Of a DNA stretch of 64,000 bases, positions 63,050 through 64,000 are shown piece by piece. Location: assembly GCF_013122565.1 (NCBI RefSeq), contig NZ_CP053258.1; one strand, given 5' to 3'. The first letter of the stretch is position 1, and each line of letters starts with the position of its first letter. A program made the position numbers and the translations under genes. The stretch is from Escherichia coli (GTDB lineage Bacteria; Pseudomonadota; Gammaproteobacteria; Enterobacterales; Enterobacteriaceae). The notes below the pieces were generated by a model. The model ran no database searches and was not told the DNA's origin. It saw nothing but the letters and a program-made list of their open reading frames with translations.

Positions 63050-63420
63050 TAATGGATAACCACAGAACACGTAGCACATAACGTCCTGGCGGCTGTGCTT
63101 CGCGGCTTCTTTCGCTGTTACAAAATGACCTTTGCTGTCATTTGTCATATAACAGTTCAGAATTCATATATTTCCTCCTGAGTTGTCCGGGGAATACTGC
63201 ATCCTCCGGTCTGGCAGTGTAGGCAGTACCGCTCCCCATAATAATCGTGGCGACATTGTCTGCAGTGCCAGCTGGCTTTACGCACCACGGGTAAGGCATT
63301 CGGTATCAATTGCTGTAAGCGTTTAATCAACTGTACTTTACTGCGTTCCGGTCTGACATGAGGGCACTCGTGACCATGCTCAGTCAGCCATTTGACGGTG
63401 TGTTCAAATCAGCGACGTTC
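63050..63420 (-). pseudogene. Zinc-finger ORF fragment, possibly a transposase/mobile-element remnant (low confidence)
   Basis: Minus-strand translation ...HECPHVRPERSKVQLIKRLQQLIPNALPVVRKASWHCRQCRHDYYGERYCLHCQTGGCSIPRTTQEEIYEF with CxxC-x9-CxxC; upstream frame broken; family not assignable by eye. Confidence 0.3.
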
Positions 63421-64000
63421 AGTATCGTATTCCGGATGGTATTTGAGTGCACTAGCGCAAGGATGGCCGGTGTAGCGATCGCAAGGTGCGGTCTGTGCAG
63501 TACGGGCATCAATCAGACGATCATTCCCTTTGAAAGCGATAAAGTTTTTTGCGTATATAGTGTAGTTCCTTACCGCCAGACGACACGCAGACGTTAGCCG
63601 TCCCGCTACGGGTAGCGTGGTCAGGGTGTGAATGGCGGATTAGTGAAGTGTTATCAAAAGGAGGTAAAGTAAGCCGGTGCAGTCTGTCGTTATTGTTGCG
63701 TGGTTGTCACACTATGGGGCACTGACGTAAAAAATAATCGACATCTGCGTCGTGGCCCCACGTCAGTGAATTCGGGGGACGTTGATACAGCCAGACTGCT
63801 GAGCTCTGGTCACTGACGGATACCAACGTGTCGTAACGTACAGGGACCGGAGATTTACCTGCTCATACCGCTATGAACGTTCCACTAAAGGCGATATAGT
63901 TCTTATAAACCACTTATCAGCAGATACGAGTAACACCGTTACCGCGCTGTCGTGGCCTGCCTCTGTTACTTTTCTCCGGTACCGTACTTCGCCCCACAAT

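Follow-up and report, generated by a model that had tools for sequence, protein, structure and literature searches.

A decayed zinc-ribbon gene pair and a probably accidental inverted repeat in a conserved island module of Escherichia coli

The CP4-57 and CP4-6 islands of Escherichia coli K-12 are P4-integrase/AlpA islands with YagK/YfjJ core genes. On the SRL PAI of Shigella the order is IS66, orf38 (no similarity), orf39 (YfjJ-like), orf40 (Hha), and orf41 (Vis/AlpA) (PMC6980539), and a Gp2-like protein has been described as a likely core gene of intY/alpA islands (10.1101/2024.08.29.610337). Here we describe the end of the window, which is the whole stretch of 64,000 nucleotides of E. coli DNA that was analyzed. 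It lies in a horizontally acquired island beside tRNA-Ser(GGA). The genes of this island include AlpA-like helix-turn-helix, YfjI-family, YagK/YfjJ, CbtA/YeeU, DUF4942, and antirestriction genes, and many IS fragments are scattered through the island (IS66 at about 62241-62605 and ISL3, IS3, and IS256 just past the window). The window end is best explained as the wreck of a conserved island module in which both zinc-ribbon genes, ZnR-A and ZnR-B, are dead and a short inverted repeat is accidental; we put the probability of this reading at about 0.85. The features are listed in Table 1.

Table 1. Features at the end of the window (positions are those of the window).
Feature	Position	Strand	Basis
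ZnR-B pseudogene, second paralog	62753..63148	minus	alignment to intact pair in L003, Pfam
ZnR-A pseudogene, DUF7828 + Zn_ribbon_11	63157..63558	minus	alignment to intact paralog, Pfam, PGAP on relative
CxxC-x9-CxxC zinc knuckles (Cys99, 102, 112, 115), Zn_ribbon_11 of ZnR-A, unbroken	63214..63264	minus	sequence reading
TGA in frame for conserved Trp of PWFEH motif (Trp50), ZnR-A	63409..63411	minus	alignment
GGC (Gly) for invariant Cys31, first ligand of N-terminal zinc site, ZnR-A	63466..63468	minus	alignment
ATA at ZnR-A start; ATG (or TTG) in all intact relatives	63556..63558	minus	alignment
Non-coding conserved leader upstream of ZnR-A	63559..63734	minus	cross-genus alignments
Inverted repeat, left arm CACTGACGT	63720..63728	.	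sequence
Small hairpin CGAC-GCAGAT-GTCG then ATTATTTTTT, weak terminator-like, between repeat arms	63729..63752	minus	terminator scan
Decayed 3' relic of second YagK/YfjJ-type gene (probable)	63735..63916	minus	collinear and local alignment
Inverted repeat, right arm ACGTCAGTG; minus strand = CACTGACGT, relic (C)CA CTG ACx, Pro-Leu-Thr	63760..63768	.	
Third copy TCACTGACG, within decayed gene relic	63810..63818	.	
Intact YagK/YfjJ ('inovirus Gp2'-type) gene, 3' end, 27 codons + stop; runs beyond window	63917..64000	minus	alignment, Pfam

In its intact form the module consists of a YagK/YfjJ (Rep-like) gene, a leader, and an overlapping ZnR pair, and roughly two of every three complete E. coli genomes carry it, often more than once. 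E. coli IHE3034, ATCC 25922, and Nissle 1917 are among the strains whose modules are intact. The intact pair stands downstream of the YagK/YfjJ gene in genomic islands and large plasmids of Enterobacterales, and the order of a Rep-like gene followed by ZnR-A and ZnR-B was found in E. coli, Salmonella, Citrobacter, Serratia, Tenebrionibacter, and metagenome-assembled genomes. The two ZnR genes overlap by 13 nt at four loci (L003, L009, L023, and L025). Their intact copies encode proteins of 133 and 144 aa, each with DUF7828 and Zn_ribbon_11; in Pfam the intact relatives score 108 and 106 bits for DUF7828 and 38 bits for Zn_ribbon_11. Each paralog has two zinc sites, an N-terminal one of Cys-x2-Cys, His, and Cys in DUF7828 and a C-terminal CxxC-x9-CxxC in Zn_ribbon_11. 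The nearest intact protein found has 74% identity. No match to ZnR-A was obtained by tblastn among 50,697 phage records, and thus, although its neighbor is labeled 'inovirus', ZnR-A is not a phage gene. A sequence search of the PDB gave no relative of ZnR-A or YagK/YfjJ, PADLOC gave no defense-system match, and an NCBIfam scan gave nothing significant. No relevant literature was retrieved for DUF3279, DUF7828, Zn_ribbon_11, or 'putative zinc ribbon protein', a search on the CoiA N-terminal domain returned nothing informative, and nothing was found that addresses the zinc-ribbon genes or the leader. From synteny and the zinc-ribbon fold, we infer that intact ZnR-A and ZnR-B might be co-translated nucleic-acid-binding partners or regulators that aid an HUH-type Rep-like protein in island maintenance.

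The original prediction had pointed to a minus-strand open reading frame with CxxC-x9-CxxC and to a broken frame upstream of it, and both are present in the window (Table 1). The reading frame (63157-63330, 57 aa) reads ...ASWHCRQCRHDYYGERYCLHC... and is the 3' part of ZnR-A. By itself it scores 32.4 bits against PF11682 (cutoff 24), and its four cysteines are invariant in 29 family members. We read the lesions of ZnR-A base by base against an intact paralog (locus L003, 6326-6727). Intact frames have the invariant N-terminal zinc ligands Cys31, Cys34, His53, and Cys65 and the WFEH motif, whereas ZnR-A has Gly for Cys31 and TGA for Trp50, and ATA stands at its start. The Trp of the PWFEH motif is kept in at least 90% of the family alignment (29 members). 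The N-terminus, MYAKSFIALDGNGRLTGARTAQ, is otherwise almost invariant, and 7 of its 22 positions are changed in the window copy. The C-terminal half is far better kept than the N-terminal half, and the conceptual translation of ZnR-A scores 65.4 bits for PF25165 (cutoff 25.7) and 30.5 bits for PF11682 (cutoff 24).

ZnR-B is damaged in a similar place and elsewhere. It has a TGA (63014-63016) at the same motif Trp as ZnR-A, a 1-bp deletion near 62887 that shifts the frame, and a 17-bp deletion that takes out the second CxxC. Its conceptual translation scores 70.7 bits for DUF7828 (cutoff 25.7), and its Zn_ribbon_11 match is partial, at only 23.5 bits (cutoff 24), because the second CxxC was lost with the 17-bp deletion. 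ZnR-A and ZnR-B are therefore members of the family by descent, but they are pseudogenes. Both are also annotated as pseudogenes in E. coli PapRG-06-5, which is 99.4% identical to the window and in which the PGAP label for ZnR-A is 'putative zinc ribbon protein; internal stop'. E. coli A30 and JNE23-001 are of the same lineage as PapRG-06-5. We considered whether the paired Trp-to-TGA changes reflect recoding, and this was dropped since each gene bears other disabling lesions.

The open reading frame is the C-terminal zinc ribbon of ZnR-A, in which the frame has stayed open, and most likely it gives no functional product. The zinc ribbon itself is wholly intact over 57 open codons, and a truncated product is conceivable. 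If the truncation had been repurposed, the frame would be an expressed stand-alone mini zinc-ribbon protein, which would fit the open frame, the four Cys ligands, and the better preservation of the C-terminal half. We regard this as highly unlikely, since the sole start is a TTG that was assigned mechanically, a sigma-70 promoter scan of 62600-64000 found no site, the window copy of the leader has substitutions at otherwise nearly invariant positions, and the partner gene ZnR-B is destroyed. The suggestion that the frame is a remnant of a mobile-element protein was correct in part. It is a remnant, the tail of a pseudogene in a horizontally acquired island, but it is neither a transposase nor a recombinase: Pfam and NCBIfam gave no similarity to either, and the best transposase-associated match (CxC5, E = 0.53) was not significant.

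Upstream of the leader on the minus strand are the YagK/YfjJ-type genes. The YagK/YfjJ protein has HxH (LHIHLL) and YxxK (SYLAK) motifs in alignment, and in Pfam it scores 25.6 bits for PF11726 (cutoff 25.8) and matches PF23343 with E = 8e-4. In PHROGs, the Rep-like protein matches one family of unknown function. A protein-cluster search gave YagK/YfjJ relatives at 80-87%, and a scan of species-representative genomes with the window-type protein gave no confirmed relative. The segment between the intact gene and the leader is probably a truncated second Rep-like gene, as judged from how it aligns with the 3'-terminal 190 nt of Rep-like genes (collinear z = 9.4 for Salmonella L009, 5.0 for Serratia L013, and 3.0 for L027; local alignment z = 6.0). 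Tandem Rep-like genes are intact in L028, and a longer relic is found in L027. For 63798-63916 the similarity is weak, with z from 1 to 9 depending on the comparator.

The predicted 9-bp inverted repeat is exact, although its arms are separated by 31 nt and not by about 35 nt, so that the whole structure is 49 nt long and no boundaries of a mobile element could be drawn around it. A third copy, TCACTGACG, pairs with the middle copy as a second 9-bp inverted repeat. The real window has 33 perfect 9-bp inverted repeats with loops of 3-50 nt, and shuffled windows in which dinucleotide composition is preserved have 10.2 +/- 3.0. Three copies of one 8-mer within 110 nt are expected 0.36 times per window, and at least one such cluster occurs in 29% of the shuffles. 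Two codons that are common in E. coli, CTG and ACG, make up the 8-mer in question, CACTGACG, and the window contains six further copies of it outside this cluster. The fold of 63700-63830 has z = -1.04 on the minus strand and -2.09 on the plus strand.

The two arms have separate origins. The left arm is the 5' edge of the conserved leader and lies in a block common to the paralogs; at this place the paralogs have CACCGACGT, and orthologous leaders have ACGTCACAA or ACGTCAGCA (sense strand). In both L009 and L027, the right arm aligns with the CCA CTG ACx codons of ...PLTGRPR-stop. The Rep-like gene that flanks the L027 locus shares 87% identity with that of the window, and at this locus the sites of the two arms are not complementary to each other. 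The segment with the right arm is present as a single copy in each of three of 5426 complete E. coli genomes, and no match was found in plasmids. Except for three near-identical genomes, the repeat is absent from all related loci, paralogous and orthologous; the only close relatives of the window are 99% identical, which limits this comparison for a recently gained site. Very probably, the complementarity of the arms arose by chance in this lineage and the repeat has no function of its own.

It had been proposed that the repeat might be the end of another IS or transposon, and the open reading frame would then be the remnant of its transposase. IS66 is nearby, ISL3, IS3, and IS256 are just beyond the window, and copies of IS66, ISL3, or IS2 often come after the ZnR pair in other strains. 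However, the frame belongs to DUF7828/Zn_ribbon_11 and to no transposase family, the segment is a single-copy one of three genomes with no plasmid match, and homology with intact modules continues through the left arm. Since there is no similarity to a transposase or recombinase and the repeat is not conserved, the IS or transposon reading is refuted. The repeat is at chance level, its arms are of separate origin, and it is absent from related loci, and thus it is not an IS end; we consider this origin extremely improbable.

The other proposal for the repeat, a site for a DNA-binding protein, found no support. The three copies of CACTGACG within 100 nt are arranged forward, reverse, and forward with spacings of ~40 and ~50 nt, which would fit a dimeric DNA binder, and such a cluster is somewhat unusual (0.36 expected). 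In a specific form of this proposal, modeled on the iterons and hairpins beside rolling-circle Rep genes, the HUH-type YagK/YfjJ protein encoded next to the three copies would bind them or nick this region like an origin. The copies do lie inside 100 nt, the gene 100-200 nt upstream of them has HxH and YxxK motifs and weak matches to Rep families in Pfam, and the plus strand folds somewhat more stably than the shuffles. But no equivalent repeat is present downstream of related YagK/YfjJ genes (L003, L006, L013, L027, L028, and L031), the arms come from relic codons and the leader edge, the repeat statistics are at chance level, and the 8-mer is made of common codons and recurs in the window. 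No nick-site consensus of rolling-circle origins was identified at the repeat. Binding sites or an origin of this kind are very unlikely.

We also considered that the region separating the ZnR operon from the YagK/YfjJ gene terminates or attenuates transcription, with the small hairpin and T-run as the working part and the 9-bp arms as an outer stem. The hairpin is followed by ATTATTTTTT on the sense strand (63752-63729), and different genera share a T6 run that directly follows the Rep-like stop codon. On the other hand, the hairpin, with 5 pairs that include 3 G-C pairs, is weak, there are 2 such sites in the region compared with 1.2 from shuffles, which is not significant alone, and other loci keep the T-run without a convincing preceding hairpin. 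The T-run is enclosed by the 9-bp arms and does not lie 3' of them, and the minus-strand fold has z = -1.04. With a loop of 31 nt and no 3' T-run, the 9-bp repeat itself does not qualify as an intrinsic terminator; the inner hairpin with ATTATTTTTT is a weak fit, at a site count equal to that expected from shuffles. This reading is unlikely, and a chance repeat beside decayed genes remains the preferred explanation.

Decay of a complete module would account for what is seen. The original order on the minus strand was Rep-like gene 1, Rep-like gene 2, leader, ZnR-A, and ZnR-B. ZnR-A has lost its start codon, one zinc ligand, and the conserved Trp, and ZnR-B has the Trp-to-TGA change, the frameshift, and the deletion of a CxxC. 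One arm of the repeat is the start of the leader (TTTTTTACGTCAG...), and the other is drifted Pro-Leu-Thr codons of the truncated Rep-like gene 2.

The leader is the better conserved part of the module. It is about 175 nt long, begins with TTTTTTACGTCAG on the minus strand, and has the Shine-Dalgarno sequence AAGGA at its end. Its core is 80-89% identical between genera, and adjacent third codon positions are 33-44% identical and nearly saturated. Of 5426 complete E. coli genomes, 3762 carry it, and there is no annotation under the matches listed. The Rfam models (4227 covariance models) gave no hit at E <= 1 in window positions 62000-64000 and no hit at E <= 0.1 in seven related loci. An antisense reading frame that spans the leader (..PYRQTTRRRQPSRYGQ..) is interrupted by stops in two copies, that of Yokenella and that of the window, and is shifted by indels; it is probably non-coding. 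A consensus fold of 20 leaders by RNAalifold reached only -10.3 kcal/mol (covariation term, -0.53) and was uninformative. A hand-drawn three-helix structure is 94.6% paired but has only two double-sided changes, so that it does no more than suggest an RNA structure of the leader. Tentatively, and with somewhat less than even odds, the leader could be a previously undescribed cis-acting element of P4-integrase/AlpA-type islands and large plasmids in Enterobacterales, of which the window copy is a decayed one. Its likeliest form may be a structured 5' leader RNA, and alternatively it may be a DNA site for the Rep-like protein. Such an RNA would have an invariant bulged-A hairpin (CUGCCC, loop, GGG-A-CGG) and a long-range stem, CCGCCA/UGGCGG, with its end beside the Shine-Dalgarno sequence, and it would govern translation or stability of the ZnR-A/ZnR-B message. 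The ZnR proteins might themselves bind it.

Gene decay in a degraded island, with genes that are already pseudogenes in standard annotation, and a chance repeat are ordinary findings. More value lies in their context, the conserved unannotated leader and the recurring HUH-like/leader/ZnR module. If the leader is a regulatory RNA or a target of the ZnR proteins, it would provide a first experimental handle on the "core" genes of tRNA-integrated islands.

Compared with known systems, the Shigella SRL PAI has the same neighborhood as the window island (PMC6980539). The descriptions of the SRL PAI and of the intY/alpA islands are silent on a zinc-ribbon pair and a leader, unlike the module in the window. 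The repeat resembles IS terminal inverted repeats in being a short perfect repeat beside IS debris, but only 31 nt and no gene lie between its arms, homology to a transposase is lacking, and the segment is single-copy. Rolling-circle HUH Rep origins likewise have repeated motifs and a potential hairpin beside an HUH-like gene, whereas here the feature is not conserved beside related Rep-like genes and its arms trace to unrelated sources. Both genes match the PF25165 + PF11682 (formerly DUF3279) family in domains, order, spacing, and tandem A/B layout, but in contrast to the family the window copies are pseudogenes that have lost a start codon and zinc ligands and gained nonsense codons, a frameshift, and a deletion.

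The original prediction described a minus-strand ORF fragment with a CxxC-x9-CxxC motif and a broken upstream frame near the end of the window, and both were found there: when the frame was extended upstream, it ran into an in-frame TGA. The ORF is the C-terminal ribbon left over from ZnR-A, one of two paralogous zinc-ribbon genes (ZnR-A and ZnR-B). Of the 5426 complete E. coli genomes, about 3700 carry paralogs that are about 85% identical, the median being two copies each. In E. coli strain 300709 (L003), both genes are intact (133 and 144 aa, overlapping by 13 nt) and lie downstream of a 199-aa gene annotated as 'inovirus-type Gp2'. 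The intact ZnR-A and ZnR-B proteins match the Pfam families DUF7828 (108 and 106 bits) and then Zn_ribbon_11 (38 and 66 bits). An alignment of 29 members of the family revealed eight invariant metal ligands, four in the N-terminal domain (Cys31, Cys34, His53, and Cys65, with His53 in a Trp-Phe-Glu-His motif) and four in the C-terminal ribbon (Cys99, Cys102, Cys112, and Cys115).

Lesions were read from a base-by-base alignment of the window with L003, and both copies in the window are pseudogenes. In addition to the substitutions in the table, ZnR-B has a 1-bp deletion and a 17-bp deletion that takes out the second CxxC. The N-terminus MYAKSFIALDGNGRLTGARTAQ is near-invariant across genera, and 7 of its 22 residues are changed in the window copy. 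Both Pfam domains are still recognized in conceptual translations of ZnR-A and ZnR-B, DUF7828 scoring 65.4 and 70.7 bits. In both paralogs, the Trp of the PWFEH motif has changed from TGG to TGA, and the same invariant Cys is lost, replaced by Gly in ZnR-A and by Tyr at the Cys31 homologue in ZnR-B. We treated these matching losses as parallel decay; the Trp coincidence is about 1 in 8, from the number of Trp codons per gene. They may instead reflect short-patch gene conversion between the paralogs.

Coordinates of features in the window, and of the leader at related loci
Feature	Position	Strand	Remarks
tRNA-Ser(GGA)	42956-43043	+	
ydeO-like AraC-family regulator gene	61578-62399		truncated
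IS66 transposase fragment	about 62241-62605		
ZnR-B	about 62753-63148	-	pseudogene
ZnR-B, homologous Trp TGG to TGA	63014-63016	-	
ZnR-A	63157-63558	-	pseudogene; start ATG to ATA
Zinc-ribbon ORF	63157-63330	-	translation MIKRLQQLIPNALPVVRKASWHCRQCRHDYYGERYCLHCQTGGCSIPRTTQEEIYEF
CxxC-x9-CxxC motif of the ORF	63214-63264	-	
ZnR-A, motif Trp TGG to TGA	63409-63411	-	the in-frame TGA upstream of the ORF
ZnR-A, Cys31 to Gly (GGC)	63466-63468	-	
Leader	63559-63734	-	175 nt, from a T-run to the ZnR-A start; non-coding, strongly conserved
Inverted repeat CACTGACGT / ACGTCAGTG	63720-63728 and 63760-63768		exact; arms 31 nt apart
Third copy of the repeat motif	63810-63818		
Probable Rep-like relic	63735-63916	-	
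Leader, L003	6728-6905		
Leader, Serratia L013	4826-5000		
Leader, L016	about 3680-3772		
Leader, L023	2919-3083		

Three complete E. coli chromosomes (PapRG-06-5, A30, and JNE23-001) match the end of the window (62800-64000) at 99.3-99.4% identity. In PapRG-06-5, two pseudogenes annotated as 'putative zinc ribbon protein' are preceded by a fimbrial operon, a ydeO-like AraC regulator (truncated), and a fragment of IS66. They are followed by an intact gene with a YagK/YfjJ domain, debris of ISL3, IS3, and IS256, a gene of the YfjI family, one for an AlpA-like helix-turn-helix protein, and farther along a tyrosine integrase interrupted by IS3. On the opposite side are CbtA/YeeU toxin-antitoxin, DUF4942, antirestriction, and JAB genes, followed by tRNA-Ser. 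Thus, from this gene content and the tRNA-Ser(GGA), the ORF and the repeat lie within a genomic island of the AlpA/YfjI/YfjJ kind that is tRNA-associated and degraded. The tRNA forms one edge of the island, which continues to 64000, and the genes adjoining it (DUF4942 and CbtA/YeeU) are of the type found at the far end of such islands. The integrase usually adjoins the tRNA; here the orientation is the reverse, with the integrase at the opposite end, beyond the window. The ydeO-like gene, downstream of the fimbrial operon, reads into the IS66 fragment, and a near-identical genome annotates the former as an incomplete pseudogene and the latter as a frameshifted remnant. Pfam and NCBIfam scans found no similarity of the ORF to a transposase or recombinase. 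Therefore, the suggestion that the ORF is a remnant of a mobile-element protein holds insofar as the ORF is a remnant and the island is mobile, but not in the sense of a transposase or recombinase.

The predicted 9-bp inverted repeat is present and exact, and it is statistically unremarkable. Dinucleotide-preserving shuffles of the window contained 10.2 ± 3.0 perfect 9-bp inverted repeats with loops of 3-50 nt. For a cluster of three copies of a single 8-mer in 110 nt, the expectation per window was 0.36, and 29% of the shuffles contained at least one. The fold of 63700-63830 had z-scores of -1.04 (minus strand) and -2.09 (plus strand). The 8-mer CACTGACG occurs nine times in the window vs 1.4 expected from shuffles, three times within 63720-63818 and six times elsewhere (189, 9391, 10537, 17365, 34442, and 51447); this excess is probably due to codon usage, since CTG and ACG are both common codons in E. 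coli. Between the arms, a small hairpin followed by a T-run (63752-63729) fits a weak terminator, at a frequency not above that of shuffles.

The two arms have different origins. Homology of the window to the common E. coli paralogs stops at about 63734, between the arms. The left arm is inside the homologous block, and the paralogs have CACCGACGT there; on the sense (minus) strand the block opens with TTTTTTACGTCAG, and it directly follows the stop codon of a Rep-like (YagK/YfjJ-type) gene in Serratia, Salmonella, Mixta, and others. The right-arm DNA (63735 onward) was found in three E. coli genomes only, as a single copy in each, and was absent from the plasmids searched. It is collinear with the last ~190 nt of Rep-like genes (z = 9.4 for Salmonella L009, 5.0 for Serratia L013, and 3.0 for the related locus L027), and local alignment with L009 gave z = 6.0. 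The window's Rep-like gene is 87% identical to the one upstream in L027, where a longer relic (930-1201) still translates as ...CEFKEHYEANINIPVRYSDPDSITNIRQVLAYMTKIQQKQGILLFGCNDVPPRPLTGRPRRSL-stop. Moreover, Salmonella L028 (1297-1869) has two intact Rep-like genes in tandem before the leader. The segment between the intact YagK/YfjJ gene (63917-64000, continuing past the window end) and the leader thus probably represents, as judged from these alignments, the 3' end of a second, tandem Rep-like gene that has decayed. The right arm matches the relic codons CCA CTG ACG (Pro-Leu-Thr), and the third motif copy also falls inside the relic, in its upstream, more-decayed portion.

The repeat had been proposed as the end of an IS or transposon. 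This reading fails: there is no transposase, the arms enclose nothing, the segment is single-copy, and homology to the intact module continues through the left arm. Nor is the repeat conserved, as the arm positions in L027, L009, L013, L003, and L031 are non-complementary or complementary at about 5-6 of 9 bases at most. Because its arms are a leader edge and relic codons that are at best partly complementary in related loci, the perfect repeat appears to be a lineage-specific coincidence between the two. The ORF and the repeat are ordinary, and the ZnR pseudogenes are already annotated in near-identical genomes. The leads that are left are the conserved leader and the uncharacterised Rep-like/zinc-ribbon module, nothing else.

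Among 5426 complete E. coli genomes, 3762 carry the leader, with as many as six copies. A degenerate pattern from its core, searched in species-representative genomes, identified nine further loci: six from named Enterobacterales (Siccibacter, Tenebrionibacter, Superficieibacter, Salmonella diarizonae, Mixta, and Yokenella) and three from metagenome-assembled genomes. The pattern was 9-15 nt upstream of the ZnR-A gene in all loci with downstream sequence available. Between distant pairs, the ~70-nt core is 80-89% identical vs 33-44% at third positions of the first 48 adjacent codons. Core identity so far above that of neighboring third positions argues for purifying selection on the leader nucleotide sequence itself. 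None of the 60 matches listed from complete E. coli genomes had an annotated feature under the leader, and no Rfam match was found in the window end or the related loci scanned. An antisense ORF across the leader was considered and is probably non-coding. On the sense strand, CCGCCA can pair with UGGCGG, ending beside the Shine-Dalgarno sequence, and CACGC with GCGUG. There is also an invariant hairpin with a bulged A (CUGCCC, loop, GGG-A-CGG), in which the loop differs among copies. In these pairings 94.6% of cells were paired, and the variation was mostly C-G to U-G; double-sided changes occurred at two pairs only, and RNAalifold support was weak. The leader is a credible candidate for an undescribed cis-acting element. 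The window copy has substitutions at near-invariant positions (e.g., an A for a G in the hairpin stem), consistent with decay of the entire module.

The ZnR family comprises ~260 protein clusters, nearly all from Enterobacterales, including Escherichia, Salmonella, Citrobacter, Enterobacter, Klebsiella, Serratia, and Edwardsiella. Citrobacter, Salmonella, Serratia, Tenebrionibacter, and several E. coli strains share the order of a 175-225-aa YagK/YfjJ-type gene, ZnR-A, and usually ZnR-B, sometimes with an AlpA gene before ZnR-A; Hha is often upstream and an IS copy often downstream. The leader and ZnR unit is on 26 plasmid records, chiefly from Klebsiella and E. coli. ZnR-A had no match among the phage genomes searched, defence-system models gave no match to any of four module proteins, and the literature searched made no mention of the ZnR family. 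In Citrobacter (L006/L007, 3022-5390), two ZnR genes, each with its own 177-193-aa gene ahead, adjoin a Dpd set (QueD-like PTPS, DpdD, PLD-like, and DEAD-helicase genes). Dpd genes produce 7-deazaguanine DNA modifications, and these neighbors suggest that the module is carried with differing cargo in different islands. The YagK/YfjJ proteins have HxH (LHIHLL, YHAHVV) and YxxK (SYLAK, AYMAK) motifs in common and weakly match the Rep-family models PF23343 and PF11726; they would fit an HUH rolling-circle-type enzyme. The Gp2-like neighbor gene has been listed among the probable core genes of intY/alpA islands (10.1101/2024.08.29.610337), and in the Shigella SRL island it adjoins Hha and AlpA (PMC6980539).
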